The notes below the pieces were generated by a model. That model was not told the DNA's origin. It worked only from the letters and a program-made list of their open reading frames with translations, and ran no database searches. From Rhynchopus sp. YZ270_cl-10 (lineage: Eukaryota): a DNA stretch of 64,000 bases. Position numbers and translations under genes: made by a program. The stretch's first letter is position 1. Every line of letters begins with the position of its first letter. Positions 20,101-64,000 of this stretch are shown piece after piece. Location of the stretch: assembly GCA_964035575.1 (NCBI GenBank), contig OZ037839.1, positions 930,001 through 994,000 of the forward strand. The letters run 5' to 3'.

Positions 20101-20384
20101 GTACACAGGTACACAGGTACACAGGTACACAGGTACACAGGTACACAGGTACACAGGTACACAGGTACACAGGTACACAGGTACACAGGTACACAGGTAC
20201 ACAGGTACACAGGTACACAGGTACACAGGTACACAGGTACACAGGTACACAGGTACACAGGTACACAGGTACACAGGTACACAGGTACACAGGTACACAG
20301 GTACACAGGTACACAGGTACACAGGTACACAGGTACACAGGTACACAGGTACACAGGTACACAGGTACACAGGTACACAGGTAC
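20101..20384. repeat. Perfect 8-bp minisatellite (GTACACAG)n, ~35 units
   Basis: Read directly; flanked by the imperfect inverted repeat GACCCTGACTGGCACT / AGTGCCAGAGTCAAGGGTC. Confidence 0.97.
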
Positions 20385-21372
20385 AGCCAGAGTGCCAGAG
20401 TCAAGGGTCCGCGCGGGGTCCGCCCCCCGATGACATAACGAAGTATCGCTTGAAAATACCGTTCAATATATGTTGCTTGGTGTGCATGAAGAAGGACACA
20501 CAAGGTATATCAAACGATAAATCAATCAGATAAACGTTACATCATCGGAAAATTGTTGGCACCGCCCCCCTGTCTTCGTATTTATTACCCCGTCGACAGG
20601 CCAAACAGCGTTGGGCTCAGAAGAAGCAGTGCAAGACAGTCACTGGGGATCAACATGAGAACCAACTCCCAACAACACAGGCTACCGAAGTAGCAGGTGG
20701 GGTGTTGCGGGTGTTTGGGGTGAGAAAATCGATTTTGGTAAGTTGCAGCAGAACATTCTTAAGTTCGCACTAGTCGAGAGAGGCTTACCCGCTGCAGTGA
20801 AGCAGTGCACCTGGAGAAGCGTGACACGCACATACAAGTATGTACGTTACTTCAACAAAGGCTGAATTCTGGTAATTCTAAGGGATGTGAATTCAGCCAC
20901 CACGCAGGTAGTGTTTTAAGGTTCCTCGCTTTGTGCTGCACAGCGGACTCATGACACAAAGGAGTTGCCCCCGCTCTCTTTCGCGCAAATTTAAGAAAAT
21001 TCTGAAGTAACTACAACCTGGCGTGCGGGTACAGATGCATTGCTTTGTTCTTTCCTCAAAGTCATATCTGATCTCTCGGGTCTGTACTAAAGTCAGTGTT
21101 TAGATAAGCATCCACTTGACTCGTTCTAACAACCGTTGAAATCTAGAACAAAAAGAACAAAACAATACACTGCCCCTTCTCACACCAAGCCGCCATGCTT
21201 CAAGAGCATGCCCTGGGCAAAAATTACTGTGACAAAAATTGGTTTTCTGGGGGAACGCGATATTTTCTTGTGCCTACTGTAGTCCTCCGCAAGAGCAGAG
21301 GACAGACTTTCCGGATCCCGAAGTCGAATTTTTTGCACTAGCTATGCTCCCTGGGTTAATGGCTATAGCAGT

Positions 21373-35151: not shown

Positions 35152-37114
35152 TTATGCTGCCCCCAACTCTCCAAATCCTCTTTTTGTTCCTCTTTTTTGT
35201 CCTCTTGTACTTGCATCAATCCCTTCCCTCTCTTGTCCTGCTTTCAATGCAATACATTGTCTTGCACTTCCAGACACGTCTGTTCGTACTGCCTCAAAAG
35301 CTTCTATCCGCACATCTTCGAACTGTTCCGTAAACCTTGCGTAAATCTCACGCACACGTACATAGAAGGCCTCCTTGTAGGTGCTCATTCTAGGGTCTCC
35401 ATTCGGGAGAGACAACATCTCGTCAATGTCGATGTTGCCTGGCAAGACGACTGTTGTGAGTGCGTTGCAGTTGCGCAGGAAGTCGTGCCGGATCTCTGTG
35501 TCCCTGCCAAAACCTGACATGTCCAGCGTGGTCAAGGATGTGCACTCTTGAAGGAAACGTTTATCAATCTGCGTAACATTGCTCATTCCTGAGAAGTCTG
35601 CTGTTGTCAACGCGGAGCAGTCTTCCATCCAGCAGTCCTCAATGTGTGTGATGCTGCCAAAAGCTGAAAGGTCAATACTTCCCAGCGAGGTGCAACCCCA
35701 GAGAAAGCAGTGACCCACCTTCACAACTCTGTGCAGTGCTGTCAAGTCAATGGTTGCCAACGAGGTGCAGTTATGGAGGAAGCCGTTCTCAATGTGCGTG
35801 ACTCTGCGCCATCCTGAGATGTCAATCCTTTCCAACGACTGGCAGCTGACAAGAAAGTATGTACCAACCTTCGTCACACTCGTCATCTCGGATAAGTCAA
35901 GATTTGTGACGCTACTACCTGCGAGGAAACCGTCCCCTATCACCGTCACAGCAGTGAACCCTGACACGTCAAGGCTTGTCAACGATTTGCAGTCATAGAG
36001 ACAGAAACTCCCAATGTGCGTAACGTTGCGCAATCCCGACAAGTCAACTCTTGTAACCACACACATGAAGAGGAAGTGGTCCTCAATTCGTGTCACACCA
36101 GACACAGCAGAGAGATCAAGTGTAGTAAACGATGCTTGCGACAAGAAGTAGTTTGGAATAACAGTCGCAACCTCCGCCTGAAGAAGCAGAGAAGCCACCT
36201 CAGGATCCCTCACAGTCGCCAACCTCGCTTCGCTAAACGTTTTTAAAAATAGGATGGAACACCCCGTTCCGAAGAGGAATGCAGCCACCCCGAAAAAGTG
36301 GGGGTGTGTCGCCAGTCTGCGGTGAGAAACTCCTCCCTGAGTCAAAACTGCCGCTGGTTAGCGCTGGCTAAGGTTCCCTTTTCACCCGGTCACAATCGAG
36401 TCTCGCTCCGTCGGCGTTGACTGCACTGCAAAGCCCCTTGGTCCACCGTCGTAAAAAGACACCACAAAAAGCGTAGGTAGGTGGGGGACCGGCAGGTTAC
36501 AGACAGAGGCAGTACGGAGCTAAGGTGTCGGCGGTCGCGGGTTGCCGTGGAGGCCTGCCCCCCGTGGAGGTCTTGGGATCTGGGAGTTTTGTGGAAGTAA
36601 TCGGCTCAGAGTACCCTGCATTCCATGCACGACTCGAGCTCCTTGTGGTAGGATATTGGGGTCCCGGGAAGCACCCTTCGCCCCGAGGTCCCACCACCCC
36701 AGACAGTTTGTAGGTCTAAAAGCACAACGTACTTGTCCAGGACCTGGCCGCTCTTGGGTTCTCTCAAAAAAAGATACTAATCCCGTACGCCCGTGCACCG
36801 CAAAAATGTGCTATGGGGGGCGGTCCGCCGTCGGGAGTCGCCAACCTCGCTTCGGAAATGTCTGTCTCACCCAAGGCACGAAGTGTCTCAACAGATTGGT
36901 ACTTGGTAGTTTTCGTCAACACGACTGTGTCTCCAGCACTCAGTTCTGTGATGTCCTCTCCTTCCTCCTTCCCTCCGAAGCCCATGCGGAAGCTGTCTTC
37001 GCACAACCCTGTTGCAGACGCCACCTTCTGCCGCATCGTCTCCGTTGTGTCGTTCTCACCCACCTCAATCACGTATTTGTTTTCATCATCATATCCCTGC
37101 ACACACAGTTCCAT
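35152..37114 (-). pseudogene. UBL-LRR copy B, disrupted by a 603 bp insertion
   Basis: N-terminal part in ORF 36764..37186 and the remainder in ORF 35152..36345; split at SEARLAT. Confidence 0.9.
36233..36835 (-). mobile_element. 603 bp non-coding insertion with 19 bp TSD (likely short retroposon)
   Basis: AGTCGCCAACCTCGCTTCG duplicated at 36214-36232 and 36836-36854; paralogues show the empty site. Strand inferred from the putative 5' structure. Confidence 0.9.
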
Positions 37115-38253
37115 TGTTTCGAGTGAAGTGTTGCTCTGTTGTGGGGTGGTGTTGAGAAGGAGGAGGAGGGAGGCAAGATACAACAAAAATGCTTTCTTGT
37201 TTGTTTTTCACTCATCCACACACTGACACATATGTGGAGTGGAAAAGACTTTGGGCTGACAGGTTGTTCATAAAAAGTGGTGGGGACACTCCGGTTTGTC
37301 ACAGTTGTGCACCAAACCTGCCAAACCCTCCTGCTTGTCAGCTCTGTGGGCGTTTGTTAGTGTTGGCTGACAGTCGGCCATGGTGGGGGTGACAACGTGA
37401 TTCCATCACGTGGAAGTATAGAAGCACTGGAGCAAAACACCTTTGTTCCCTTGCGAATGCAAAACCACACAAAACAGCTCCCCACACCACAGCTTCAATA
37501 TTCTTCTCATCACACAACTGGAAAGGATACATAACATTTTACCCAAGCGTTCACAGGTTGATCCAAAAATGACCTTGTCCCTTTTGTCAAAATCTCTTTG
37601 TTTTCTCTTGGTCTATTTTCCCTGCATTTCTTATTCTCTTCTTTGTACTTTCTTTTGTTTTGGTTGTTGTTAGATACGCTCAATTGTGTATCGTATTCAG
37701 TGAAAATCGCGGAACTCCTTTTTTCATGTGTATCCATGGAAAGACAGTCTCTGATGTGATACCGCGGGGGAATTGAAAAAATGTGACGCATTCACGGCCT
37801 GTGCTAACGCATACCCAAATAGCACAGACGAAAGCTCCATCCACCTCACTGCCTCTCAGACAGTGCAAAGGGTGCTCGTGACCCAAGGTAGACCAAACCC
37901 GATAACACAAAAAACACAAGAAGACTTTCTATACACCCCCGTTCTCTATTTTGCTGTCGTCCTGCTCTTTGTTCATCGTATCCATCCTTTCTCTCTATTT
38001 TTGAAACCCCCAAAAGACCCGAAAACCCCGAAAAACCCTCATATTGAAAAAGTAAGGTGCTGAGACACAAAAGGGGGGAAGGGGAAACAGTAAGCCTCGT
38101 GACAGCCGAAAAACGTGCAGCTTCGAGGTCGCAGTGCACAGTCGCAGCTGGCGGCGTCACTCTGTGTGTCTCCGCCACTTGCGGGAATCCTCCTGTGATG
38201 CGCACTGCGTTTCGGGCGGGTTTCAACCACTGACTTCCTCTGCTGGCCGTTCC

Positions 38254-39501
38254 TCACTGCACTCGACACAACGTCGCTGCAGCCTGTCCCAGACTCTGAC
38301 CTTCCAAATGCCCTTGCTTGTCATGCTCCTGTTTGTCCAGTTCCTGCTTCTCCTCGTCTTCTTGTGCTTGCATCAAACCTTCTCCTTCTTGTCCTGCTTT
38401 CAATGCAATACATTGTCTTGCATCTCCAGACACGTCTGTTCGTACTGCCTCAAAAGCTTCTATCCGCACATCTTCGAACTGTTCCGTAAACCTTGCGTAA
38501 ATCTCACGCACACGTACATAGAAGGCCTCCTTGTAGGTGCTCATTCTAGGGTCTCCATTCGGGAGAGACAACATCTCGTCAATGTCGATGTTGCCTGGCA
38601 AGACGACTGTTGTGAGTGCGTTGCAGTTGAGCAGGAAGTCATCCTGGATCTCTGTGTCCCTGCCAAAACCTGACATGTCCAGCGTCGTCAAGGATGTGCA
38701 ATCTTGCAGGAAACACCTACCGATCAGCGTAACATTGCTCATTCCTGAAAAGTCTGCTGTTGTCAACGCGGAGCAGTCTTGCATCCAGCCGTCCTCAATG
38801 TGCGTGATTCTGCGCCATCCTGAGATGTCAAGACTTTCCAACGACCCGCAGTAGGCAAGAAAGTATTTACCAACCTTCGTCACACTCGTCATCTCGGATA
38901 AGTCAAGATTTGTGACACCACTTTCTTGGAGGAACCTGTTCCCTATCACCGTCACACCAGTGAACCCTGACACGTCAAGGCTTGTCAACGATGTGCAGTA
39001 AGAGAGAAAGCTATGCCCAATGTGCGTAACGTTGCACAATCCCGACAAGTCAACGGTTTCCACCGACCTACACCAGTAGAGGAAGCCGTCCTCAATTCGT
39101 GTCACACCAGACACAGCAGAGAGATCAAGTCTCGTAAACGATGCTTCGCACAAGAAGTAGTGCGGAATAACAGTCGCAACCTCCGCCTGAAGAAGCAGAG
39201 AAGCCACCTCAGGATCCCTCACAGTCGCCAACCTCGCTTCGGAAATGTCTGTCTCACCCAAGGCACGAAGTGTTTCAACAGATTGGTACTTGGTAGTTTT
39301 CGTCAACACGACTGTGTCTCCAGCACTCAGTTCTGTGATGTCCTCTCCTTCCTCCTTCCCTCCGAAGCCCATGCGGAAGCTGTCTTCGCACAACTCTGTT
39401 GCAGACGCCACCTTCTGCCGCATCGTCTCTGTTGTGTCGTTCTCACCCACCTCAATCACGTATTTGTTTTCATCATCATATCCCTGCACACACAGTTCCA
39501 T
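38254..39501 (-). CDS. UBL-LRR copy C (short form)
   Basis: Intact frame from MELCVQ; five LRR modules fewer than copy D; alternative acidic C-terminal tail. Confidence 0.88.
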   Translation of the reverse strand: MELCVQGYDDENKYVIEVGENDTTETMRQKVASATELCEDSFRMGFGGKEEGEDITELSAGDTVVLTKTTKYQSVETLRALGETDISEARLATVRDPEVASLLLQAEVATVIPHYFLCEASFTRLDLSAVSGVTRIEDGFLYWCRSVETVDLSGLCNVTHIGHSFLSYCTSLTSLDVSGFTGVTVIGNRFLQESGVTNLDLSEMTSVTKVGKYFLAYCGSLESLDISGWRRITHIEDGWMQDCSALTTADFSGMSNVTLIGRCFLQDCTSLTTLDMSGFGRDTEIQDDFLLNCNALTTVVLPGNIDIDEMLSLPNGDPRMSTYKEAFYVRVREIYARFTEQFEDVRIEAFEAVRTDVSGDARQCIALKAGQEGEGLMQAQEDEEKQELDKQEHDKQGHLEGQSLGQAAATLCRVQ

Positions 39502-39984
39502 TGTTTCGAGTGAAGTGTTGCTCTGTTGTGGAGTAAGTGTTGAGAAGGAGGAGGGAGGCAAGATACAACAAAATAGCTTTCTTGTTTGTTTTTCACTTAT
39601 CCCCACCCTGCCACATATGTGGAGTGGAAAAGACTTTGGGCTGACAGGTTGTTCACAAAAAGTGGTGGGGACACTCCGGTTTGTCAGAGTTGTGCACCAA
39701 ACCTGCCAAACCCTCCTGCTTGTCAGCTCTGTGGGCGTTTGTTAGTGTTGGCTGACAGTCGGCCATGGTGGGGGTGACAACGTGATTCCATCACGTGGAA
39801 GTATAGAAGCACTGGAGCAAAACACCTTCGTTCCCTTGCGAATGCAAAACCACACAAAACAGCTCCCCACACCACAGCTTCAATATTCTTCTCATCACAC
39901 AACTGGAAAGGATACATAACATTTTACCCAAGCGTTCACAGGTTGATCCAAAAATGACCTTGTCCCTTTTGTCAAAATCTCTTT

Positions 39985-40234
39985 GTTTTTTTTTTTTTTT
40001 TTTTTTTTTTTCACTGTAACCTACCATGGTAGGCGTGACGCTGACTACACGGTAATTATTGGTAGCCGCGCCACTGGTACTGCCTCTTGCTTAGTTTTGT
40101 TGTTGTGCTACTTAGCGGGGTTCCACACTGCGACGGGGCAGGGGGGACAGCTTCCCTTTTCCTCTTGGAGACACAGTCCGCACACCTCTCCCCAAGGTGT
40201 GGCAGAGCCTACTGACTCTGGGCTGACGACATGG
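39985..40234 (-). mobile_element. ~250 bp poly(A)-tailed retroposon
   Basis: Absent from the duplicated segment at ~37595; TTTGTTTT TSD; minus strand ends GGTTACAGTG(A)n. Confidence 0.88.
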
Positions 40235-40925
40235 TTTGTTTTCTCTTGGTCTATTTTCCCTGCATTTCTTATTCTCTTCTTTGTACTTTCTTTTGTTTTG
40301 GTTGTTGTTAGATACGCTCAATTGTGCATCGTATTCAGTGAAAATCGCGGAACTCCTTTTTTCATGTATATCCATGGAAAGACAGTATCAGATGTGATAC
40401 CGTGGGGGAATTGAAAAAAGGTGTCGTTGACAAAAAATAAACAACTGACGAGCTGCGTGAAAAAACGAGTGTTTCTATGTGTGTGATATTTTGTGGGGGG
40501 GGGGGGGATAACATATTGCAAACAAAGCTTGTTGCATTCCTACTCTCGTTTCTGCTGCACTCTCACTACCTTCCCACTCCATTCGGTTTTCTCTTACTTT
40601 ATAAAATAATATATTTTGGCCTCTGTGAAATATCAAGGACAATCGACACGAATAACGTGGTGTGGGAAATGCGGGATAACTGAGTGCTGCATAAAAAACA
40701 AAGTTGACTTGAAATACAAAGCCCTCTCGTGAACAGTGTACTTTAAACAAAACTGGAAAAAAAAAAGAGAGCGGGGGGAGAAAGGAGGATAAATGTTTCA
40801 TCCCCACCCCCTTACACTGCATAGCTCTGTTAAACTTGTAGTCATTTGGATTTTGCTTTTCGTTCTTCACACAAATCACCAAACCCCCCGAACCCCTCTG
40901 CTCATCCAGCTTGTCCTGCTCCTGT

Positions 40926-42476
40926 TTATGCTGCCCCCAACTCTCCAAATCCTCTTTTTTGTCCTCTTGTGCTTGCATCAAACCCTTCTCCTTCTTGTCC
41001 TGCTTTCAATGCAATACATTGTCTTGCACTTCCAGACACGTCTGTTCGTACTGCCTCAAAAGCTTCTATCCGCACATCTTCGAACTGTTCCGTAAACCTT
41101 GCGTAAATCTCACGCACACGTACATAGAAGGCCTCCTTGTAGGTGCTCATTCTAGGGTCTCCATTCGGGAGAGACAACATCTCGTCAATGTCGATGTTGC
41201 CTGGCAAGACGACTGTTGTGAGTGCGTTGCAGTTGAGCAGGAAGTCGTGCCGGATCTCTGTGTCCCTGCCAAAACCTGACATGTCCAGCGTCGTCAAGGA
41301 TGTGCACTCTCGCAGGAAACCACGATCAATCAGCGTAACATTGCTCAGTCCTGATAAGTCTGCTGCTGTCAACGCGGAACACCCTTGCATCCAGTTCTCA
41401 ATGTGTGTGATGCTGCGCAACACTGATAAATCAACTGCTTTCAATGATGTGCACCCGAGAAGAAACCCTGACCCAATAGCTGCGACATTGCCAAAAGCTG
41501 AGAAGTTAATGCTTGCCAGCGAGGTGCAGGTCCTCAGAAAGCAGTTACCCACCTTCACAACCCTGTGCAGTGCTGTCAAGTCAATCGTTTCCAACGAGGT
41601 GCAGCCCCTACAAAATTCGATCCCAATTTCCGTCACATTCGTCATCCCTGAAAAGCTGATGGTGGTCAACGACGAGCAGTAGCGGAGAAGCTCGGAGCCG
41701 ATCTTCGTGACACTGCGAAAAGCTGACAAATCAATGGTTGCCAACGAGGTGCAGTTCTGGAGGAAGCCGTCCTCAATGTGCGTGATTCTGCGCCATCCTG
41801 AGATGTCAATCCTTTTCAACGACCTGCAGTAGGCAAGAAAATCTGCACCAACCTTCGTCACACTCGTCATCTCGGATAAGTCAAGATTTGTGACGCCAGT
41901 TCCATGGAGGAACGACTCCCCTATCACCGTCACACCAGTGAACCCTGACACGTCAAGGCTTGTCAACGATGCGCAGTAAGAGAGACAGTCATGCCCAATG
42001 TGCGTAACGTTGCACAATCCCGACAAGTCAACGGTTTCCACCGACCTACAACTGTAGAGGAAGTGGTGCTCAATTCGTGTCACACCAGACACAGCAGAGA
42101 GATCAAGTCTCGTAAACGATGCTTGCGACAAGAAGAAGCCTGGAATAACAGTCGCAACCTCCGCCTGAAGAAGCAGAGAAGCCACCTCAGGATCCTTCAC
42201 AGTCGCCAACCTCGCTTCGGAAATGTCTGTCTCACCCAAGGCACGAAGTTCCTCAACAGATTGGTACTTGGTAGTTTTCGTCAACACGACTGTGTCTCCA
42301 GCACTCAGTTCTGTGATGTCCTCTCCTTCCTCCTTCCCTCCGAAGCCCATGCGGAAGCTGTCTTCGCACAACCCTGTTGCAGACGCCACCTTCTCCCGCA
42401 TCGTCTCCGTTGTGTCGTTCTCACCCACCTCAATCACGTATTTGGTATCATCATATCCCTGCACACACAGTTCCAT
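40926..42476 (-). CDS. UBL-LRR copy D (longest form, ~12 full LRR modules)
   Basis: Intact frame; UBL, LRR array and conserved C-terminal domain. Confidence 0.9.
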   Translation of the reverse strand: MELCVQGYDDTKYVIEVGENDTTETMREKVASATGLCEDSFRMGFGGKEEGEDITELSAGDTVVLTKTTKYQSVEELRALGETDISEARLATVKDPEVASLLLQAEVATVIPGFFLSQASFTRLDLSAVSGVTRIEHHFLYSCRSVETVDLSGLCNVTHIGHDCLSYCASLTSLDVSGFTGVTVIGESFLHGTGVTNLDLSEMTSVTKVGADFLAYCRSLKRIDISGWRRITHIEDGFLQNCTSLATIDLSAFRSVTKIGSELLRYCSSLTTISFSGMTNVTEIGIEFCRGCTSLETIDLTALHRVVKVGNCFLRTCTSLASINFSAFGNVAAIGSGFLLGCTSLKAVDLSVLRSITHIENWMQGCSALTAADLSGLSNVTLIDRGFLRECTSLTTLDMSGFGRDTEIRHDFLLNCNALTTVVLPGNIDIDEMLSLPNGDPRMSTYKEAFYVRVREIYARFTEQFEDVRIEAFEAVRTDVSGSARQCIALKAGQEGEGFDASTRGQKRGFGELGAA

Positions 42477-42689
42477 TGTTTCGAGTGAAGTGTTGCTCTG
42501 TTGTGGGGTGAGTGTTGAGAAGGAGGAGGAGGGAGGCAAGATACAACAAAATGGGGGGATAACATGCTCGAGAGACTCTTTACTCTTTGTTTGCTCAAAA
42601 GACTGCAAAGTGGGAAGAGAAAAACTAAGATTGTTTGTTGTTCGCTTCCAGGGTGCGTCAGCGGTGTGCCCGAGAGGCTGTTGTCTCCA

Positions 42690-43040
42690 AAGCTAGTCGT
42701 GCAGTGCGAAAGGAACCAGCTATCAATACGTCTGGCACTGCGAAGTGATGGCAATAGAGGGACGTCAACCCTGTGCACGAAAGAACCTTCTCCCGCATAT
42801 CACCAACCCCGCCAAAACAGTGAAAATTCTATTCAATTATTTCCAACGCGATGCAGCTTGAGGAAGCCTTTCCCAACCTCTGACACCGTACCACGTAGAT
42901 ACGTCCGGTCGTGTCAACACGCTGCAGTGCGAAAGCAACCAATGTCCAACAGGCACCACCCCTTCCAACCCAGGCAAGTCAAGCACTGTCCACTCGACGC
43001 CATAAAGACAATTACCCGATGGAAGTGACACTGCTCGCCT
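42690..43040 (-). pseudogene. Degenerate LRR remnant
   Basis: TVLDLPGLEGVVPVGHWLLSHCSVL and SARRIDSWFLSHCT fragments in shifted frames. Confidence 0.5.
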
Positions 43041-43133: not shown

Positions 43134-46100
43134 CTACAGCACACATGTTCGTGCGTCGTGGAAGCTTTCCAGTGTCTCTGGAAGGCCATTGCGCACGCGT
43201 ATCTGACGTACCATGTCCGCTGCCGGTGTCTCAAGAGCAAGCGGGTCACCCGGGTACAACGCCCAATGATCAAAGACACTGCTCTGCACCGCCTGTAGCA
43301 AGGGAGCAGGTTGTGGGAGGGGAGGGGGAAAGGAGGAAAAACAGAAGTGTAAAGTGCAAAAACCTTCCTGCGTGCAGGAGACAATGGTGGCTGTACACAA
43401 AGACAGATAGTGCTAATGAAAAGCTTCACCGCTCTAGTTGTTGTGTCTTTTCCCCCCACTGAATTAGTGAATGTAGTGACTGTAAACTTCTAAACTGCAA
43501 AAGGGGAGGTGCACCGTACGTGGTTGTCTGCTTCTTATTGCCGGGGGCTTGATATTTGAAACAAAAAGCAACATATCTTATTTGCGCTCCTGGAACGTGC
43601 CATACCTGTCCCCCAGTTTTGTTGCGAAGCTCCGCAGAAAGCCCGATGGACTCTGTTGCAGGAAGGTGTGCACGGACCTGCAGGGAGAAGGGTAGAAAGA
43701 AAGATATCTAGACTCGCTCTATAAAGTGCATCTTGCACAGGTGGCAGTGCTGTTCTAACTATTTATCAAAAAAAAAGGGGGAAATAGAAACTAAACACTC
43801 ATCACACAAAAACCCCAAGGTTTGTGGTGAAACGCACACACCTCGACCTGTTTTGGTGAGGAGTGGCTCTGCAGCGCGGTTCGTCCCCAGAACCGCAAAG
43901 TCTGTTCAAAATGCTTTGTTTCTATTTCCTCCTTCATTTCATGAGACAACTAAAGAAAACTTTGTCCACGAAACGAGAGATAGGCGAGGAACGGCTGGTA
44001 ACGTGTACTCCACTCCAAAAAGTAAAAATAAAACCCCCTCAACTTCAGCCCTTTGATTCATACATTGAACATAGTACCACGGGTGCTCTCTCCAAGGACC
44101 GTGCATCTTCGTTGTTGCAGAGTTGTGTAGACGGAGTCGATTGATGTGAGTGTGGTGGTCACATCCAGACGGAAGATCGGCACCATCAACCGCGGCGCTG
44201 CCGTGAGAATGCAGGCACGCGCTGCACCCCGCATGGTGGGAATGATCTGTCCTGCACCACGGTGGATAGCATCTGCGTGCAACGTCGCATGCTCGATGTC
44301 CACCCGCACCCCTCTCATCACCTCCCCACACAACACACCCTCCCCCGTCAGCCACGTCCACGCCGCCCCAACTGAGTCTTTCAGCTCCTGCATATATTGC
44401 ACACCCTTCGTAACATCGACCACAACATTCGGCCCTCCGGCCGGCCCAAAGCACCATACCGGTGTTTTGTATGTCCCCTCTTCAATCTGTGTGCAGACAG
44501 CGTCTGGTAGAGGAAAGCCTTTGCAGTACAATACGTTGTGTCTGTTGGGTGACATTGCGGTGCATTGACGGTTGCTTGCTTCGGTGATGGTTTCGCGAAG
44601 TCGGATGGAAATATCGGAGACTGTAAAGCACGGTGCTTTGTAGTCTGCACTGCGAAGACGCGCCAGGCAGTGAAGTACCGCATCTTCTGTAGAACCGGCA
44701 ACCATGTGAACACCCGCTTCCGATACTGCAATGTCGGCAGTATGTTCACAACTCGCCGCCTTCTTCAGTGCATAAACCAAACGTGGAAGATCCTGAACCT
44801 CACACACAACCTCAGCCTGCACCACACTGACACCCCCTACATCGCTCTTCAACGGACACACCACCCCATCCGACACCGTTGCCCCCACCTTCACATTCAG
44901 ATCCAATGCACAAAGGTTCCCACAAACCAACCTCCCCACCGGATGATGCCATTTTCCAAACACCGCCACCATGCTTCCTTGCTTGATATGGTCTCTTCCG
45001 GCGCGAAGCTTTTCCCCGCGGGAGACTGTTCCGGAAAATACTCTGCCAAATGCGAAGAGACGTCCGTCATATGGGACAACAGATGCGATGAAGAGGGTGA
45101 GAGGTGCGGTGGGACTGCAGTGGCTGACACCGAGGTATCCGGGGTCGTGGATGTCAATGGTGCTGTCGTCGTAGAGCAGGGGTGTGCGGTAGGTCTGAGC
45201 CTCAAGGGGGGAGGGGAGGGCAGTGACAACAGCGTGGAGGAGCTGTTTGGAAGGCAGCAGTTTCTTGAGAATGGCTTGAAGACGGCGTGACGGGGTCAGG
45301 TCACGTTGTGTCCTGTTCACAGTGATCTTCAGACTGCGCAGCATCCGTGCCAGCTTCTCCTCCTTCCCATTCAACACCGCCTCCGCCAACCCCCACAACG
45401 GCTCCAAACAGAACTGACAAAACCCCCTCTCCCCGCTCCCCGAATCCTCCCCCCACCTCTTCGTCTTAGCATCATAGAAATGATCCCCCCAAATCCGGTT
45501 CAGAAGTTTGCTTTCATTCATCTCCAATTTCTTAGAATACAATCCCACAAAATCTTTCAGCGTAAACGACCAAGACCCGAGACCCGACCCAAAAACGACG
45601 TTACCGAGGGACGGATGGAGTTCGGTATGGGCATCATCATTGTAGAGTGAGGTGACGTCATTGGTGGAGGCAATGGTCCTAAGACAGCGCTGGTAGGTGG
45701 CTTCAGGGGTGCCAGAGGCGAGGGGGACATCAAGTTTGTTGAGCATAAGCAAGGGGCGGATGCGGAGTGCGAGGGCACTGCGCAGGAGTGTCGCGGTCTG
45801 TGTGGGGAGGGCGTCGCCTGGGAGCCTGTCTGTGGAGACAGCTTCGCATGAGGGGGTGTGGTTTGAGGTGCTGTCCCCATCACCCACGCTCACGACAATA
45901 ACAGCGCCGTCGCATATGCGCAGCGTGGTGTGCACACCATGTGCCACGTCCTCCTCACACAACCCAATCACATTAACCAAGAACCCCTCCCCATCATCGT
46001 AATGCAGACCGACGCTGGGTGACGGCTGGTCGTAGCGCTGAGGGGGTGGGGGTGGGGTGGGTGATGAGGACAAGCGGTTTTAAACAATAAAATTGATTGG

Positions 46101-46672
46101 GTTCTCTCTGTTGGCTTTTGTTATGCTTTTTTGCCGGAAAAAGGCATTGCGTTGAGAGGGTGACAGCGTACTTTTTGGTGCATTGAGCAGTAGATCGGGG
46201 TCCGCAACTTTTTTTTTTTTATTATTTATTTTCTTTTTGAGCAGCATACGTCTCGCGAGTCACAGCGACGGTCAATTATACGACCACGTGGCTCCGTAAT
46301 TGAATATTCTGCGGCAAGGCATTTGGCAAGGGTGCTCCGTCCGTGGCCAACATCGCCCAGGAAACAACTGCCAAGCAAGGGAAGGGGAAGGGGGTGTATG
46401 TGGAATTGTAAAGGTAAAAGACAAGCAAAGCAGAACACCACACCACCCTAACCCAACTGGAGGGCAGTTCGTCTGCCATGTCATCGAACCCCTCCTCCCC
46501 GAGCACCCAAAATATCCAAAATCTGCCAAACCTATTTGGCTGCCAACTCGTTTTTGGACCACTGTTACGCCACTGCTGCAGTACACCCAGGAAACCCGAG
46601 GACATACATATGACGACTGCGATCGGGACATTCCAACAAAGACTGCACATCTGCGGCACTCATTTCTGGCAT
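43134..46672 (-). CDS. Divergent eEF2 paralogue, 5 exons, copy 1
   Basis: Mirror copy of 59459-62969 with the same splice sites. Confidence 0.85.
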
Positions 46673-48827: not shown

Positions 48828-49027
48828 NNNNNNNNNNNNNNNNNNNNNNNNNNNNNNNNNNNNNNNNNNNNNNNNNNNNNNNNNNNNNNNNNNNNNNNNN
48901 NNNNNNNNNNNNNNNNNNNNNNNNNNNNNNNNNNNNNNNNNNNNNNNNNNNNNNNNNNNNNNNNNNNNNNNNNNNNNNNNNNNNNNNNNNNNNNNNNNNN
49001 NNNNNNNNNNNNNNNNNNNNNNNNNNN
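48828..49027. other. Assembly gap (200 N)
   Basis: Run of N. Confidence 1.
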
Positions 49028-54769: not shown

Positions 54770-57700
54770 ATTGCGATCGAAGATGGACCAAGACTAAGCA
54801 ATTAGGTTTCATCGTACAAACTTTTCTTTCCCCCTTATGTTTGAGGACATCTTTTTTTGCCCTCCGTGAAGGAGTGTTTTTTGAGTGTTTTCTTTGCATC
54901 GGACAGTGTTTCAAAGCTGTTCTCTTGTGAATACTGTTGCCCGCAGGTTGGCGAGCTACGATACCTGAAACACATTCGGTGTTCCGCTGTTGTTTATTCT
55001 TTGCAAGTTGTGAGCTGCATGACCGGAGTCGGTCCTAGCCCATGGGGCGGCCCCTTTGGTTGTGTTATGCTCCTGGTGTGAAGCGCCCGTCCTAGCCAGG
55101 GTGTGGTAAATCTCAGGAGTGCCTTTTAAACGTCCTGTCTGCCATTTCGGTTGATACAAATTATCGTGCTTCAAAAATGTTATTGGTTCAGAATAAATGT
55201 GGATCTTGTTCTGGACCAACGCTTTTCAAAGCACAGTACAAAGAGAGATCATTAACCGAATGCAACGTGCTACTTTGGGGGGTTCTTTGGGGAGTTAATG
55301 TTCAGCCTTTTTCAAGCTTTTGTGCGTCTATTTTCATTTTGGTGAACTTCTCCCCTCTTTATCCCACAGAGTTCTCCTTTGCCAACCCCGAGTCTCTCGA
55401 GCATGTTGTCCCCCCATTTTGTTGTATCTTGCCTCCCTCCTCGTCCTTCTCAACACCACCCCACAACAGAGCAACACGTCACTCGAAACAATGGAACTGT
55501 GTGTGCAGGGATATGATGAAAACAAATTCGTGATTGAGGTGGGTGAGAACGACACAACGGAGACGATGCGGCAGAAGGTGGCGTCTGCAACAGGGTTGTG
55601 CGAAGACAGCTTCCGCATGGGCTTCGGAGGGAAGGAGGAAGGAGAGGACATCACAGAACTGAGTGCTGGAGACACAGTCGTGTTGACGAAGTCGACGAAG
55701 TACGCATCTGTTAAGAAACTTCGTGCCTTGGGTGAGACAGACATTTCCGAAGCGAGGTTGGCGACTGTGAAGGATCCTGAGGTGGCTTCTCTGCTTCTTC
55801 AGGCGGAGGTTGCGACTGTTATTCCGAACTACTTCTTGGCGCAAGCATCATTTACGAGACTTGATCTCTCTGCTGTGTCTGGTGTGACACGAATTAAGGA
55901 CGGCTTCCTCTACAGTTGTAGGTCGGTGGAAACTGTTGACTTGTCGGGATTGTGCAACGTTACGCACATCGGGGACTACTGTCTCTCTTCCTGCACATCG
56001 TTGACAAGCCTTGACGTGTCAGGGTTCACTGGTGTGACGGTGATAGGGAAGTCGTTCCTAGGAGGAACTGGCGTCACAAATCTTGACTTATCCCATATGA
56101 CGAGTGTGGCGGAGGTTGGTGCAAATTTTCTTTCCCAATGCGAGTCGTTGGACAGTCTTGACATCTCAGGATGGCGCAGCATCACACACATTGAGGACGG
56201 CTGGATGCAAGAGTGCTCCGCGTTGACAACAGCACACTTCTCAGGAATGAGCAATGTTAGTCGGATTGGTAGATATTTCCTGCAGGATTGCACATCCTTG
56301 ACGATACTGGACATGTCAGGTTTTGACAGGGACACAGAGATCCAGGACGACTTCCTGCTCAACTGCAACGCACTCATAAGAGTCGTCTTGCCAGGCAACA
56401 TCGACATTGACGAGATGTTGTCTCTCCCGAATGGAGACCCTAGAATGAGCAACTACAAGGAGGCCTTCTATGTACGTGTGCGTGAGATTTACGCAAGGTT
56501 ACGGAATAGTTCGAAGATGTGCGGATAGAAGCTTTTGAGGCAGTACGAACAGACGTGTCTGGAAGTGCAAGACAATGCATCGCGATCGAAGGTGGACCAA
56601 GACTAAGCAATTAGGTTTCATCTTACAAAATTCTTTCCCCCTTATGTTTGAGGCCTCCCCTCAGAGAACTTTTTTTGCCCTCCGGGAAGGAGTGTTTTTT
56701 GAGTGTTTTCTTTGCATCGGGAAGTGTTTCAAAGCTGTTCTCTTGCGAATACTGTTGCCCGCAGGTTGGCGAGCTACGATACCTGAAACACATTCGGTGT
56801 TCCGCTGTTGTTTATTCTTTGCCAGTTGTGAGCTGCATGACCGGAGTCGGTCCTCGCCCATGGGGTGGCCCCTTTGTTGTGGTATGCTCCTGGTGTGAAG
56901 CGCCCGTCCTAGCCAGGGTGTGATAAATCTCAGGAGTGCCTTTTAAACGTCCTGTCTGCCATTTCGGTTGATACAAATTATCGTGCTTCAAAAATGTTAT
57001 TGGTTCAGAATAAATGTGCCCCTTTTTCTGGACCAACGCTTTTCAAAGCACAGTACAAAGAGAGATCATTAACCGAATGCAACGTGCTACTTTGGGGGGT
57101 TCTTTGGGGAGTTAATGTTCAGCCTTTTTCAAGCTTTTGTGCGTCTATTTTCATTTTGGTGAACTTCTCCCCTCTTTATCCCACAGAGTTCTCCTTTGCC
57201 AACCCCGAGTCTCTCGAGCATGTTGTCCCCCCGTTTTGTTGTATGTTGCCTCCCTCCTCGTCCTTCTCAACACCACCCCACAACAGAGCAACACGTCACT
57301 CGAAACAATGGAACTGTGTGTGCAAGGATATCATGACAACAAATTCGTGATTGAGGTGGGTGAGAACGACACAACGGAGACGATGCGGCAGAAGGTGGCG
57401 TCTGCAACAGGGTTGTGCGAAGACAGCTTCCGCATGGGCTTCGGAGGGAAGGAGGAAGGAGAGGACATCACAGAACTGAGTGCTGGAGACACAGTCGTGT
57501 TGACGAAAACTACCAAGTACCAATCTGTTGAGGAACTTCGTGCCTTGGGTGAGACAGACATTTCCGAAGCGAGGTTGGCGACTGTGAGGGATCCTGAGGT
57601 GGCTTCTCTGCTTCTTCAGGCGGAGGTTGCGACTGTTATTCCTGACCGGTTCTTGAGCGATGCATCGTTTACGAGACTTGATCTCTCTGCTGTGTCTGGT

Positions 57701-58690
57701 GTGACACGAATTAAGGACGGCTTCCTCTCCGGGTGTGCGTCGGTGGAAACTGTTGACTTGTCGGGATTGTGCAACGTTACGCACATCGGGTATGGCTGTC
57801 TCTCTTACTGCACATCGTTGACAAGCCTTGACGTGTCAGGGTTCACTGGTGTGACGGTGATAGGGGAGTCGTTCCTCCAAGGAAGTGGCGTCACAAAGCT
57901 TGACTTATCCCATATGACGAGTGTGACGAAGGTTGGTACATACTTTCTTTTCAACTGCGAGTCGTTGAAAAGGATTGACATCTCAGGATGGCGCAGAATC
58001 ACGCACATTGAGGACCACTTCCTCATGAGCTGCACCTCGTTGGCAAGCATTGATTTGTCAGCTTTTTGCAGTGTCACGAAGATCGGATCCAAGCTTTTCT
58101 TCAACTGCAAGTCGTTGACCACCATCAGCTTTTCAGGGATGACAAATGTGACGGAAATTGGGAACGATTTTTGTGCGTACTGCACCTCGTTGGAAACGAT
58201 TGACTTGACAGCACTACACAAAGTTGTGAAGGTGGGTAACGGCTTTCTCTGGGGCTGCACTTCGCTGGGAATCATCGACCTTTCAGCTTTGGGCAGCATC
58301 ACACACATTGAGGACTGCTGGATGCAAGAGTGTTCCGCGTTGACAACAGCAGACTTCTCAGGAATGAGCAATGTTCGGCGGATTGATGCTAATTTCCTGC
58401 AAGAGTGCACATCCTTGACCACGCTGGACATGTCAGGTTTTGGCAGGGACACAGAGATCCATCATGACATACTGTTCAACTGCAACGCACTCACAACAGT
58501 CGTCTTGCCAGGCAACATCGACATTGACGAGATGTTGTCTCTCCCGAATGGAGACCCTAGAATGAGCAACTACAAGGAGGCCTTCTATGTACGTGTGCGT
58601 GAGATTTACGCAAGGTTTACGGAACAGTTCGAAGATGTGCGGATAGAAGCTTTTGAGGCAGTACGAACAGACGTGTCTGGAAGTGCAAGA
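54770..58690 (+). repeat. Tandem duplication of the upstream region plus UBL-LRR gene
   Basis: ~54770-55490 is repeated at ~56580-57307, each copy followed by an LRR gene. Confidence 0.85.
55491..56580 (+). pseudogene. UBL-LRR copy E (short form; frameshift near 56500 and 3' truncation)
   Basis: CAAGGTTACGG versus CAAGGTTTACGG in paralogues; stop at 56528; homology ends at the duplication junction near 56580. Confidence 0.8.
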
Positions 58691-58798
58691 CAATGTATTG
58701 CATTGAAAGCAGGACAAGAGAGGGAAGGGATTGATGCAAGCACAAGAGGACAAAAAAGAGGAACAAAAAGAGGATTTGGAGAGTTGGGGGCAGCATAA
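57308..58798 (+). CDS. UBL-LRR copy F
   Basis: Intact frame; one LRR module fewer than copy D. Confidence 0.9.
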   Translation: MELCVQGYHDNKFVIEVGENDTTETMRQKVASATGLCEDSFRMGFGGKEEGEDITELSAGDTVVLTKTTKYQSVEELRALGETDISEARLATVRDPEVASLLLQAEVATVIPDRFLSDASFTRLDLSAVSGVTRIKDGFLSGCASVETVDLSGLCNVTHIGYGCLSYCTSLTSLDVSGFTGVTVIGESFLQGSGVTKLDLSHMTSVTKVGTYFLFNCESLKRIDISGWRRITHIEDHFLMSCTSLASIDLSAFCSVTKIGSKLFFNCKSLTTISFSGMTNVTEIGNDFCAYCTSLETIDLTALHKVVKVGNGFLWGCTSLGIIDLSALGSITHIEDCWMQECSALTTADFSGMSNVRRIDANFLQECTSLTTLDMSGFGRDTEIHHDILFNCNALTTVVLPGNIDIDEMLSLPNGDPRMSNYKEAFYVRVREIYARFTEQFEDVRIEAFEAVRTDVSGSARQCIALKAGQEREGIDASTRGQKRGTKRGFGELGAA

Positions 58799-59458
58799 AC
58801 AGGCGCAGGACAAGCTGGATGAACAGAGGGGTTTGGGGGTTTGTGTGAAGAACACTTCGGTGAACGTATTGAACTGCATTTTTGGGTACACTTTTGAGAG
58901 CTGGGGTAAAATGTTTGGCAGGTTTGGTGCACAACTCTGACAAACTGGAGTGTCCCCACCACTTTTTATGAACAACCTGTCAGCCCAAAGTCTTTTCCAC
59001 TCCACATATGTGTCAGGCTGGGGATGAGTGAAAAACAAACGAGAAAGCTATTTTATTGTATCCTGCCTCCCTCCTCCTCCTTCTCAACCCCTCCCCCGCT
59101 ACTGAGTAAAACAAAAGCCTTTAGTGCCACACCCCTTCTCTTGCTCGCTTATCAGTGCTGCTCTCGTTGCAATGAAGATAACAACAACAGTCCTTCACGG
59201 TAACGAGTTTGTAACAACTCACCTCACGAATGCAGATGGATGGTACACAAGCGACCCATAGCCAGACGTGCTCCTTTATTAAAAAGCCACACAACACACA
59301 CCTTGGATCACTGTACAGTCACTCTACTCTACCACGTCAGTGGTCCATGCTACGTGAGGCACATCCCTCTTGCATTTTCTGTGACCAAGCACGGTGATGC
59401 GAACATCCTTACCCTTATCCTTTTCTTCAGAGTCGAAGGGTCTTTGTGTGGGGGAAAT

Positions 59459-62400
59459 ATGCCAGAAATGAGTGCCGCAGATGTGCAGTCTTTGTTGGAA
59501 TGTCCCGATCGCAGTCGTCATATGTATGTCCTCGGGTTTCCTGGGTGTACTGCAGCAGTGGCGTAACAGTGGTCCAAAAATATGTTGGCGGCCAAATAGG
59601 TTTGGCGGATTTTGGAGATTTTTGGGTACTCGGGGAGGGGGGGTTCGATGGCATGGCAGCAGACGAACTGCCCTCCAGTTGGGTTAGGGTGGTGTGGTGT
59701 TCTGCTTTGCTTCTCTCTTACCTTAAGAATTCCACATACACCCCCTTCCCCTTCCCTTGCTTGGCAGTTGTTTCCTGGGCGATGTTGGCCACGGACGGAG
59801 CACCCTTGCCAAATGCCTTGCCGCAGAATATTCAATTACGGAGCCACGTGGTCGTATAATTGACCGTCGCTGTGACTCGCGAGACGTATGCTGCTCAAAA
59901 AGAAAATAAATAATAAAAAAAAAAAAGTTGCGGACCCCGATCTACTGCTCAATGCACCAAAAAGTACGCTGTCACCCTCTCAACGCAATGCCTTTTTCCG
60001 GCAAAAAAGCATAACAAAAGCCAACAGAGAGAACCCAATCAATTTTATTGTTGAAAACCGCTTGTCCTCATCACCCACCCCACCCCCACCCCCTCAGCGC
60101 TACGACCAGCCGTCACCCAGCGTCGGTCTGCATTACGATGATGGGGAGGGGTTCTTGGTTAATGTGATTGGGTTGTGTGAGGAGGACGTGGCACATGGTG
60201 TGCACACCACGCTGCGCATATGCGACGGCGCTGTTATTGTCGTGAGCGTGGGTGATGGGGACAGCACCTCAAACCACACCCCCTCATGCGAAGCTGTCTC
60301 CACAGACAGGCTCCCAGGCGACGCCCTCCCCACACAGACCGCGACACTCCTGCGCAGTGCCCTCGCACTCCGCATCCGCCCCTTGCTTATGCTCAACAAA
60401 CTTGATGTCCCCCTCGCCTCTGGCACCCCTGAAGCCACCTACCAGCGCTGTCTTAGGACCATTGCCTCCACCAATGACGTCACCTCACTCTACAATGATG
60501 ATGCCCATACCGAACTCCATCCGTCCCTCGGTAACGTCGTTTTTGGGTCGGGTCTCGGGTCTTGGTCGTTTACGCTGAAAGATTTTGTGGGATTGTATTC
60601 TAAGAAATTGGAGATGAATGAAAGCAAACTTCTGAACCGGATTTGGGGGGATCATTTCTATGATGCTAAGACGAAGAGGTGGGGGGAGGATTCGGGGAGC
60701 GGGGAGAGGGGGTTTTGTCAGTTCTGTTTGGAGCCGTTGTGGGGGTTGGCGGAGGCGGTGTTGAATGGGAAGGAGGAGAAGCTGGCACGGATGCTGCGCA
60801 GTCTGAAGATCACTGTGAACAGGACACAACGTGACCTGACCCCGTCACGCCGTCTTCAAGCCATTCTCAAGAAACTGCTGCCTTCCAAACAGCTCCTCCA
60901 CGCTGTTGTCACTGCCCTCCCCTCCCCCCTTGAGGCTCAGACCTACCGCACACCCCTGCTCTACGACGACAGCACCATTGACATCCACGACCCCGGATAC
61001 CTCGGTGTCAGCCACTGCAGTCCCACCGCACCTCTCACCCTCTTCATCGCATCTGTTGTCCCATATGACGGACGTCTCTTCGCATTTGGCAGAGTATTTT
61101 CCGGAACAGTCTCCCGCGGGGAAAAGCTTCGCGCCGGAAGAGACCATATCAAGCAAGGAAGCATGGTGGCGGTGTTTGGAAAATGGCATCATCCGGTGGG
61201 GAGGTTGGTTTGTGGGAACCTTTGTGCATTGGATCTGAATGTGAAGGTGGGGGCAACGGTGTCGGATGGGGTGGTGTGTCCGTTGAAGAGCGATGTAGGG
61301 GGTGTCAGTGTGGTGCAGGCTGAGGTTGTGTGTGAGGTTCAGGATCTTCCACGTTTGGTTTATGCACTGAAGAAGGCGGCGAGTTGTGAACATACTGCCG
61401 ACATTGCAGTATCGGAAGCGGGTGTTCACATGGTTGCCGGTTCTACAGAAGATGCGGTACTTCACTGCCTGGCGCGTCTTCGCAGTGCAGACTACAAAGC
61501 ACCGTGCTTTACAGTCTCCGATATTTCCATCCGACTTCGCGAAACCATCACCGAAGCAAGCAACCGTCAATGCACCGCAATGTCACCCAACAGACACAAC
61601 GTATTGTACTGCAAAGGCTTTCCTCTACCAGACGCTGTCTGCACACAGATTGAAGAGGGGACATACAAAACACCGGTATGGTGCTTTGGGCCGGCCGGAG
61701 GGCCGAATGTTGTGGTCGATGTTACGAAGGGTGTGCAATATATGCAGGAGCTGAAAGACTCAGTTGGGGCGGCGTGGACGTGGCTGACGGGGGAGGGTGT
61801 GTTGTGTGGGGAGGTGATGAGAGGGGTGCGGGTGGACATCGAGCATGCGACGTTGCACGCAGATGCTATCCACCGTGGTGCAGGACAGATCATTCCCACC
61901 ATGCGGGGTGCAGCGCGTGCCTGCATTCTCACGGCAGCGCCGCGGTTGATGGTGCCGATCTTCCGTCTGGATGTGACCACCACACTCACATCAATCGACT
62001 CCGTCTACACAACTCTGCAACAACGAAGATGCACGGTCCTTGGAGAGAGCACCCGCGGTACTATGTTCAATGTATGAATCAAAGGGCTGAGGTTGGGGGT
62101 TTTTTGTATTTTTACTTTTTGGAGTGGGGTACACGTTACCAGTCTGTCTTTTCGTGGATAAAGTTTTCTTCAGTCGTCTCATGAAATGAAGGAGGAAATA
62201 CAAACAAAGCATTTTGAACAGACTTTGCGGTTCTGGGGACGAACCGCGCTGCAGAGCCACTCCTCACCAAACAGGTGTGCGTTTCACCACAAACCTTGGG
62301 GTTTTTGTGTGATGAGTGTTAAGTTTCTATTTCCCCCTTTTTTTTGATAAATAGTTAGAACAGCACTGCCACCTGTGCAAGATGCACTTTATAGAGCGAG

Positions 62401-62969
62401 TCTAGATATCTTTCTTTCTACCCTTCTCCCTGCAGGTCCGTGCACACCTTCCTGCAACAGAGTCCATCGGGCTTTCTGCGGAGCTTCGCAACAAAACTGG
62501 GGGACAGGTATGGCACGATCCAGGAGCGCAAATAATATATGTTGCTTTTTGTTTCAAATATCAGGCCCCCGGCAATAAGAAGCAGACAACCACGTACGGT
62601 GCACCTCCCCTTTTGCAGTTTAGAAGTTTACAGTCACTACATTCACTATTTCAGTGGGGGGAAAAGAAGAGCGGTAAAGCTTTTCATCAGCACTATCTGG
62701 CTTTGTGTACAGCCACCATTGTCTCCTGCACGCAGGAGGGTTTTTGCACTTTACACTTCTGTTTTTCCTCCTTTCCCCCTCCCCTCCCACAACCTGCTCC
62801 CTTGCTACAGGCGGTGCAGAGCAGTGTCTTTGATCATTGGGCGTTGTACCCGGGTGACCCGCTTGCTCTTGAGACACCGGCAGCGGACATGGTACGTCAG
62901 ATACGCGTGCGCAATGGCCTTCCAGAGACACTGGAAAGCTTCCACGACGCACGAACATGTGTGCTGTAG
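59459..62969 (+). CDS. Divergent eEF2 paralogue, copy 2; exons 59459-59523, 59768-59885, 60098-62071, 62436-62507, 62811-62969
   Basis: All four GT-AG introns splice in frame. eEF2-like motifs: TLRICDGAVIVV, NKLD, GNVVFGSGL, RLWGD-like RIWGDHF, AFGRVFSGTV, SPNRHN, HADAIHRGAGQIIP, VFDHW. Confidence 0.88.
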
Positions 62970-63059
62970 AGAGGGGGTGCACACAAGCCTTGCTGTTGGT
63001 CGTTGGGGTGGGGGTGGTTGCAGGCGTTCGGGTCCACTACTGCTCTGTATGGTGAGTTG

Positions 63060-63420
63060 CTGAGGCGAGCAGTGTCACTTCCATCGGGTAATTGTCTTTA
63101 TGGCGTCGAGTGGACAGTGCTTGACTTGCCTGGGTTGGAAGGGGTGGTGCCTGTTGGACATTGGTTGCTTTCGCACTGCAGCGTGTTGACACGACCGGAC
63201 GTATCTACGTGGTACGGTGTCAGAGGTTGGGAAAGGCTTCCTCAAGCTGCATCGCGTTGGAAATAATTGAATAGAATTGTCACTGTTTTGGCGGTGTTGG
63301 TGATATGCGGGAGTGGTGTCCTTCGTGCACAGGGTTGACGTCCCTCTATTGCCATCACTTCGCAGTGCCAGACGTATTGATAGCTGGTTCCTTTCGCACT
63401 GCACGACTAGCTTTGGAGAC
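63060..63420 (+). pseudogene. Degenerate LRR remnant (mirror of 42690-43040)
   Basis: Same fragments as the left-arm copy. Confidence 0.5.
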
Positions 63421-63626
63421 AACAGCCTCTCGGGCACACCGCTGACGCACCCTGGAAGCGAACAACAAACAATCTTAGTTTTTCTCCTCCCACTTTGCAG
63501 TCTTTTTAGCAAACAAAAATTAAAGAGTCTCTCGAGCATGTTGTCCCCCCATTTTGTTGTATCTTGCCTCCCTCCTCCTCCTTCTCAACACTCACCCCAC
63601 AACAGAGCAACACTTCACTCGAAACA

Positions 63627-63670
63627 ATGGAACTGTGTGTGCAGGGATATGATGAAAACAAATTCGTGAT
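63627..63670 (+). pseudogene. UBL-LRR copy G, truncated after ~14 codons
   Basis: Leader and ATGGAACTGTGTGTGCAGGGATATGATGAAAACAAATTCGTGAT present, then unrelated sequence. Confidence 0.8.
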
Positions 63671-64000
63671 AAAGGGTTAAAGAGGAGCCAAGTGCTCCGT
63701 GAGATTAGAGATTTGTGGAAAAATGAAGAATTGTTAGAAAACTCTGCCAAGTGGGTTCGTAGTGGGCAATGGAGAGGACAGAGATAGAGGGTGTGTGGAG
63801 TGGAGTGCATCCTCGGGTGTCTGCACACACAAAAAGGAACTAATAGAGGAAAAATGCTCGAGAGACTCGTTCCTCTTTGCTTGTTGCTCAAAAGACTATA
63901 AACGGGGGGGAATATCTATTTATTCGACTTTTTATACAGTAGTTTTATTTTGCGATAATTTCACGCTAATTTTCGATGCGAGTGCGGTTAATTTGCCGAG

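Follow-up and report, generated by a model that had tools for sequence, protein, structure and literature searches.

An eEF2 paralogue of Rhynchopus with an eroded GTPase switch and a conserved decoding-centre tip, and candidate relatives of the same kind

eEF2 offshoots and the Rhynchopus gene

The elongation factor eEF2 is thought to have left just two lasting eukaryotic offshoots, EFL1/Ria1 and Snu114, which are eEF2-derived paralogues with other jobs (accessible text of PMC4342817). The same text records highly divergent extra eEF2 copies in the discoban protist Naegleria gruberi; these are noted, in its accessible part, without motif or functional analysis, and a pattern in which the switch is lost and the tip kept is not described there. 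In bacteria, EFG II/EF-G2 is an extra copy beside an essential factor, with domains I-III eroded, the G2 consensus lost and domain IV conserved (accessible parts of PMC3150367 and PMC6989115); it is ancient, and keeps G1, G3, G4 and G5 (PMC3150367, same part). The archaeal aEF-2p is likewise a divergent EF-2 paralogue beside a canonical copy, but it is the mirror image of the gene described here, in that G1-G5 remain and it is the domain IV loops that have gone (PMC6143161, as far as its accessible text goes).

The catalytic H108 of yeast eEF2 belongs to switch II and is adjacent to the sarcin-ricin loop, and the H583/H694/Diph699 triad contacts the decoding centre (accessible text of PMC4896748). 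Domain III of EF-G influences GTP hydrolysis (accessible text of PMC3150367). Titles of PDB entries attest that eEF2 occurs on hibernating ribosomes.

We analysed a stretch of 64,000 nt of Rhynchopus sp. DNA (the window), in which a five-exon gene, copy A, encodes one 795-aa frame interrupted by four GT-AG introns (244, 212, 364 and 303 nt; Table 1). The predicted protein shares with canonical eEF2 (Diplonema ambulator P0002; yeast 1n0u) its domain set, its predicted fold, about 43% identity, three intron positions, G4, G5 and domain IV loops 1-3. It differs from canonical eEF2 by a Lys to Arg change in the P-loop; by the loss of switch I, DxPGH and GELHLE; by 22 aa inserted behind switch II and 25 aa deleted from domain IV; and by a branch 10- to 30-fold longer. 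A preliminary description of this DNA had located the G1 motif, NVIGLCEE, NKLD and the diphthamide loop with its His, all of which we find in the same places; the insertion and the deletion had escaped it. Unlike EFG II, the paralogue is eukaryotic and eEF2-derived, and it scores 19.6 bits against the profile NF058620, whose cut-off is 1000, so that descent from bacterial EF-G is not borne out.

Pfam recognised EFG_IV and, weakly, GTP_EFTU on the protein, and a sequence ranking against the PDB put eEF2 (E about 1e-113) far ahead of Snu114 (1e-56); Rfam gave 0 matches within 58900-64000. The AlphaFold model, which covers exon 3 only and was built with 87 other rows of the EF-2 family as a guide (89 rows in all), reached pLDDT 83 and pTM 0.73, with the 22-aa insertion disordered; it supersedes an earlier model with 12 rows that was too poor (pLDDT 56). 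Among known structures the model matches eEF2 best (Z 31.1, with an rmsd of 6.8 across 626 residues), and the eEF2 fold is predicted to be intact in the paralogue.

Table 1. Positions of the paralogue, its motifs and its surroundings within the window.
Feature	Position	Strand	Evidence or remark
Duplicated unit	59053..63670	+	98.0% identical to inverted 47078-42433
LRR-gene 5' remnants at the ends of the unit	59050-59112 and 63551-63613		
AG behind pyrimidine tract, likely spliced-leader trans-splice acceptor	59429..59430	+	sequence; spliced-leader role putative
Copy A exon 1, ATG start	59459..59523	+	joint 59523-59768 GT..AG seen in run X5
Copy A exon 2, eroded G1 and beginning of lost switch I	59768..59885	+	sequence
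GDVGHGRST (G1, Lys to Arg)	59778-59804	+	exon 2
Intron 2, 212 nt, phase 0, ancestral position	59886..60097	+	retained in X5 contig
Stop met on intron 2 retention	59907-59909		codon 69 of the frame
Exon 3, remaining G domain, G', II, III, IV and part of V	60098..62071	+	sequence, Pfam, fold
Lost G3, NVIGLCEE	60161-60184	+	exon 3
22-aa insert	about 60260-60325	+	exon 3
G4 NKLD	60395-60406	+	exon 3
Domain III patch, third copy/variant differs at 24 letters	61329..61426	+	matches protein P0001
Domain III GSTEDAVL	61439-61462	+	exon 3
Domain IV loop 2 SPNRHN, Lys to Arg, His kept	61583..61600	+	exon 3
Diphthamide loop HADAIHRGAGQIIPT	61856..61900	+	target His653 codon 61871-61873
Exon 4 (domain V)	62436..62507	+	joint 62071-62436 seen in X5
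Exon 5 with stop codon	62811..62969	+	X5 contig extends to 63410
200-N gap between copies A and B	48828-49027		
Copy B, whole	46672..43134	-	
Copy B exons	46672-46608, 46367-46250, 46037-44064, 43677-43606, 43292-43134	-	sequence

Descent, duplication and expression

The closest canonical eEF2s are those of diplonemids (Diplonema, Rhynchopus; 43-44% identity), and in our trees the paralogue nests inside euglenozoan eEF2 (SH-aLRT 100, 97 and 95) on a very long branch (1.6 per site, where the eEF2s of diplonemids have 0.05-0.16). Placed alone it is sister to all diplonemids; in company with other long branches it falls beside kinetoplastids. The preliminary description had raised the possibility of a grouping with EFL1 or Snu114, and trees together with AU tests rule out either identity: a clade with Snu114 was rejected at p=0.032 and one with EFL1 at p=0.038, the latter on one row, P0052, which we take to be EFL1-like from its features and to which the Pfam EFL1 profile gave no match. 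EFL1 and Snu114 pre-date the last eukaryotic ancestor, and the acidic N-terminal extension that is a Snu114 trait is absent from our protein, which begins at the eEF2 start. A canonical eEF2 (P0191) is probably present elsewhere in the same assembly, a point that had been put forward as a check; a clade of the paralogue with P0191 was weakly rejected (AU p=0.040).

Among eight genomic gene calls for canonical eEF2s of diplonemid type, breaks fall at the place of intron 2 in 5/8, of intron 3 in 7/8 and of intron 4 in 2 of the 3 that reach it. Because introns 2-4 of the paralogue sit at these breaks, we conclude that the gene arose by DNA duplication and that its model is sound. After the protein P0001 the next matches have about 41% identity, and no orthologue above about 45% identity was found among 1.84 billion representatives; a metagenome scan returned 43 pattern matches with no relative among them, and the ESM Atlas merely general eEF2/EFL1 clusters (<=0.93). 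Among diplonemid-type proteins in ENA, P0136 is another, mildly damaged eEF2 copy.

Copy B, carried by the 4.6-kb inverted duplicate, encodes the same protein as copy A, with 1 synonymous difference in 2388 nt; because a 200-N gap lies between them, the two could be haplotypes. P0001 represents a third version, with 23 differences (one of them merely the called start residue) and a 5-aa insertion, and is probably a third gene copy on the same scaffold as the window. We rejected the protein identity of A and B as evidence of selection, since synonymous sites have been homogenised too (1 synonymous difference observed against 19 expected from the introns). The duplicated unit ends on both sides in LRR-gene 5' remnants, and the paralogue sits inside it, which explains more simply the proximity to hypervariable LRR genes that had seemed notable: the link between LRR genes and paralogue is positional, and looks like array recombination.

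The frame is open, without a stop, and all of its 22-25 indels are in frame, for which (1/3)^22, about 3e-11, gives a rough bound on chance. An open frame maintained over at least 1.6 changes per site, with in-frame indels, is not what a neutral copy gives; judged from its sequence, the paralogue is real and has long been selected. Domain-wise dN/dS, proposed earlier as a check, was obtained for a single domain III patch, where 23/24 changes in that one patch give 0.71-0.74; among the variants outside it, 3/5 are synonymous.

Four of five sequencing runs were aligned (X1, X2, X4 and X5), no run being recorded as RNA; X5 was taken as RNA solely because it alone of the four shows GT..AG joints, three in number, which fall exactly at introns 1, 3 and 4. 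As to expression, the gene is thus transcribed in one spliced-looking run. New here is our observation that this run removes introns 1, 3 and 4 and keeps intron 2: an unbroken 868-nt contig spans intron 2, with no joint for it, and a second variant contig runs 11 nt past the intron 2 donor, to the repeat-cut point. X5 is one sample read as contigs, and contigs can demonstrate that a form is present but not that it is absent. Retention of intron 2 stops the frame after 68 codons. The earlier statement that the frame and all splice sites are intact in both copies holds for the DNA, intron 2 donor and acceptor included, but the X5 contig reads through this intron. At the 5' end, X5 contig 9 aligns from 59430, at the candidate acceptor AG, and carries 21 unmatched letters, as spliced-leader trans-splicing would likely give; spliced-leader addition is general in Euglenozoa (accessible text of PMC10161547). 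X5 contains both variants of domain III, and in the runs the variant exon indels come to a net +3 nt in exon 2 and a net +3 nt in exon 3.

These observations bear on whether a formerly selected paralogue is now relaxed and decaying, as a passenger of the LRR array that yields mostly unproductive, intron-2-retaining RNA. The read-through of intron 2 would suit such decay, as would the second variant contig that passes the donor, the domain III dN/dS of about 0.7, the failure to find an orthologue among the representatives searched, the position within a duplicated LRR unit and the existence of the damaged copy P0136. However, exon 3 is open in 3/3 known copies, the net indel in each variant exon preserves the frame, most of the few variants outside the patch are synonymous, and intron 2 has intact sites at an ancestral position; moreover, contigs can drop a minority spliced form. 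We consider present decay unlikely.

The lost switch and the kept tip

As a reference we used the 443 columns that are at least 95% invariant across 127 canonical full-length eEF2s, of which the paralogue keeps 226/443. By domain it keeps 59/136 in G, 24/42 in G', 31/61 in II, 21/59 in III, 59/86 in IV and 26/51 in V, and the better conservation of domain IV that had been claimed is upheld (59/86 against 167/357 in all else; Fisher p=3e-4). This count supersedes a smaller one, made on 10 partly incomplete rows, that gave p=0.05-0.07. Among invariant sites, the diphthamide loop keeps 13/14 and G3 2/10, and tip sites are kept at 16/17 (0.94) against 0.51 elsewhere; a post-hoc test on whichever 20-column window scored best did not reach significance (p=0.17).

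The erosion of the GTPase motifs first described is confirmed for switch I (G2), which keeps 2/8 invariant sites (0.25) and has its Thr replaced, and for G3, where DxPGH with its catalytic His keeps 0/5. G1 is only partly eroded (6/10 kept), its key change being that of the P-loop Lys, invariant in the 127 canonical eEF2s, to Arg. G4 NKxD (3/3, as first reported for NKLD) and G5 (4/4) are kept. In domain III, whose erosion equals that of the G domain, GELHLE is gone and its Gly has become Thr; erosion extends to those portions of domains II, III and V that face the ribosome. By the domain IV loop definitions given in the accessible text of PMC6143161, loop HxDxxHRG keeps 13/14, loop SPxKHN 4/5 (Lys to Arg) and the Glu-Arg bridge 4/4. 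All three residues of the H583/H694/Diph699 triad are kept (3/3), and so are the loop 3 Glu and its partner Arg.

With the GTP-sensing and GTP-splitting parts lost and the decoding-centre tip retained, these data are best fitted by a ribosome binder that lacks a GTP clock. We therefore propose, tentatively and as a reading that falls somewhat short of probable, that the paralogue works as a GTP-independent ribosome binder, occupying the factor-binding and A sites and holding or slowing ribosomes. In such a protein the Mg-GTP switch and hydrolysis would be absent, the ribosome would be bound through the His-His-His tip, and release timed by GTP would not take place; more speculatively, retention of intron 2 might limit the amount of protein until the cell comes under stress or turns dormant. 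The proposal draws further on the long selection of the frame, the predicted eEF2 fold, the recurrence described below and bacterial precedent, EFG II having a like pattern of eroded domains I-III beside a conserved domain IV. Weighing against it are the intron 2 read-through in X5, the dN/dS of about 0.7 in the domain III patch, the search above that turned up no orthologue, the erosion on the ribosome side of domains II, III and V, and the 25 aa deleted from domain IV.

The pattern of conservation could also point away from the ribosome, to a competitor for the partners of eEF2 domains IV and G' (diphthamide enzymes, the P-stalk or chaperones) that tunes canonical eEF2. Of the large parts of the protein, G' and domain IV have been conserved best, which would agree with such a role, but contact with the ribosome accounts for loop 2 and the triad, and we regard this competitor as quite improbable.

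Recurrence in eEF2 relatives and candidate roles

Relatives were collected as the best 150 of 357 representatives at E up to 1e-30; dropping P0001 and 41 partial rows left 108. New here, among these best 150 of 357, is that 51/108 relatives are without DxPGH, co-lose the switch network and keep the tip, a recurrence count that is biased by a query which lacked G3 and carried the diphthamide loop, and that may include pseudogenes or bad gene calls. Within this set (best 150 of 357), 14 of the 51 still have a His at the place of the lost motif; loss of G3 goes together with that of switch I, of the motifs in domain III and of the one in domain V, and the G3-less rows keep 0.33 of the other switch-network sites, against 0.68 in controls, and 0.66 of the tip sites, against 0.69. 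Again among the best 150 of 357, the loop His-Arg pair is kept in 33/51, as is the target His by itself, against 44/51 for the next Arg, so that the His is the less conserved of the two; 23 of the 33 His-Arg keepers are 780-880 aa long and only 23-42% alike, and the opposite pattern is rarer (10/108). The loop His is lost in 18/51 of the G3-less rows against 7/57 of the GTPase-intact divergent controls (p=0.006; best 150 of 357), and the diphthamide loop of our paralogue is tied best within the G3-less set from the same best 150 of 357.

When rows were placed one at a time, P0222 joined hemistasiid-type eEF2 (97), P0221 the P0368 group (100), and P0238 and P0345 both joined P0010 (100); most of the 26 rows placed singly took weak or basal positions. 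Under LG+G4 ten degenerate rows form a clade (98); under C20 seven rows split into at least 2-3 groups. This class of switch-less eEF2 relatives likely has several origins rather than being one ancient family, as far as sequence comparison can tell. A description of a GTPase-dead eEF2 class was not found in the literature searched (main texts, with few subscription papers), and the paralogue is not a member of any named family.

A kept tip and a lost switch might also be expected of a factor that translocates slowly and without GTP, as the eukaryotic equivalent of Bacteroides EF-G2, and keeps translation going under energy shortage. There is precedent in that EF-G2 is induced by carbon limitation (accessible text of PMC6989115) and that translocation by an EF-G paralogue proceeds without hydrolysis of GTP (a citation in the accessible text of PMC12775393); our protein has retained G4, G5 and, in full, the tip by which the decoding centre is unlocked. 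However, EFG II keeps G1 and G3, going by the accessible text of PMC3150367, and this protein neither; its domain III is heavily eroded, and the loop His is missing from 18 of the 51 look-alikes among the best 150 of 357. We find a translocase distinctly unlikely.

The diphthamide loop bears equally on the suggestion, made in the preliminary description, that the paralogue serves as a toxin decoy, which we widen to a decoy or sensor of ADP-ribosylating toxins directed at diphthamide, or of other effectors or drugs that target eEF2. Diphthamide is the target of such toxins (accessible text of PMC7354439), and the retention of His, Arg, Gly and the whole loop, the existence of several copies that vary in a patch of domain III and the place among variable LRR genes would all accord with a decoy. 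Yet the same loop is a ribosome contact, and so its retention does not discriminate; dN/dS, on 23 changes in the one domain III patch, does not appear to exceed 1; the LRR co-location is explained by the duplicated unit; and a catalytic toxin would presumably need an abundant decoy. The idea is weakened further because the His itself is lost in the G3-less relatives, and more often than in controls (best 150 of 357, as above), and we think it improbable. Thus, of the pseudo-GTPase paralogue as first conceived, long-term selection stands and the ribosome-binding branch fits best, and the toxin decoy is without positive evidence.

Returning to the GTP-independent ribosome binder, we raise a broader possibility, which we hold to be rather doubtful: that eukaryotic microbes have repeatedly built a GTP-free eEF2, an unrecognised convergent class that clamps or slowly moves ribosomes in starvation or dormancy, here made available by splicing of a normally retained intron. 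Were the Rhynchopus gene decaying instead, it would be an ordinary array passenger. If the proposal is true, a recurrent class that drops the GTP switch and keeps the tip would amount to a new layer in the control of protist translation, and would offer a natural reagent for asking which steps of translocation need GTP hydrolysis, a live question (accessible text of PMC12775393). The class listed here makes the idea testable in culturable species.

Uneven homogenisation of the two paralogue copies

Comparison of the five-exon eEF2-paralogue gene (copy A) with its inverted duplicate (copy B), across 59436-63278, found that the two hardly differ in their exons, in intron 2 or over about 310 nt of 3′ UTR, whereas introns 1, 3 and 4 diverge by 2.6-5.3%; intron 2 carries a single difference in 212 nt, against 36 in the 911 nt of introns 1, 3 and 4 together (p=0.009). 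The homogenised segments correspond to the RNA form in sequencing run X5, intron 2 included. The homogenisation may reflect conversion templated by cDNA, a DNA tract, or an effect of assembly.

When intron 2 is kept in copy A, an in-frame ATG within the intron opens a 729-aa frame (P0056; 59888-62077). In copy B and in the X5 contig this frame is broken by a stop at 60053, and the following in-frame ATG is at 60389, immediately before the G4 motif (NKLD). Intron 3 holds an interspersed repeat of very high copy number (about 62120-62340; summed depth in sequencing run X1 about 784,000, versus about 1,000), for which an Rfam search gave no match.

Other eEF2 homologues

P0136, encoded on a 1,539,504-nt ENA contig, is a mildly eroded copy of eEF2. 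It is placed in our tree as sister of the canonical eEF2 P0191, is altered in domain III and at the first His of the diphthamide loop, and has two derived residues in common with the window paralogue. Six further homologues (P0013-P0018; 1058-1089 aa) have a PF05203 domain, which is homing-endonuclease-associated, and group as a single clade; these are probably intein-bearing eEF2s.

Genes and repeats of the neighbourhood

Further features of the window
Feature	Position	Strand	Remark
Ubiquitin-like and BspA-type LRR gene array	3701-5074		
Same array	35152-42692	-	
Same array	55299-58798	+	
WD40 genes, tandem pair	6565-7776 and 9376-10653	-	88% identical
8-nt tandem array	20100-20385		perfect, 36 copies
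Tyrosine recombinase gene	26103-27119	-	
3′-5′ exonuclease fragment	50238-50945		

Genes of the LRR array vary both in repeat number and in residues, and the one lying 3′ of copy A is truncated after 17 codons (63627-63680). The N-terminus of the WD40 pair appears, by eye, to be ubiquitin-like. Because its exact protein is found on 37 ENA contigs, the tyrosine recombinase is a young mobile element.
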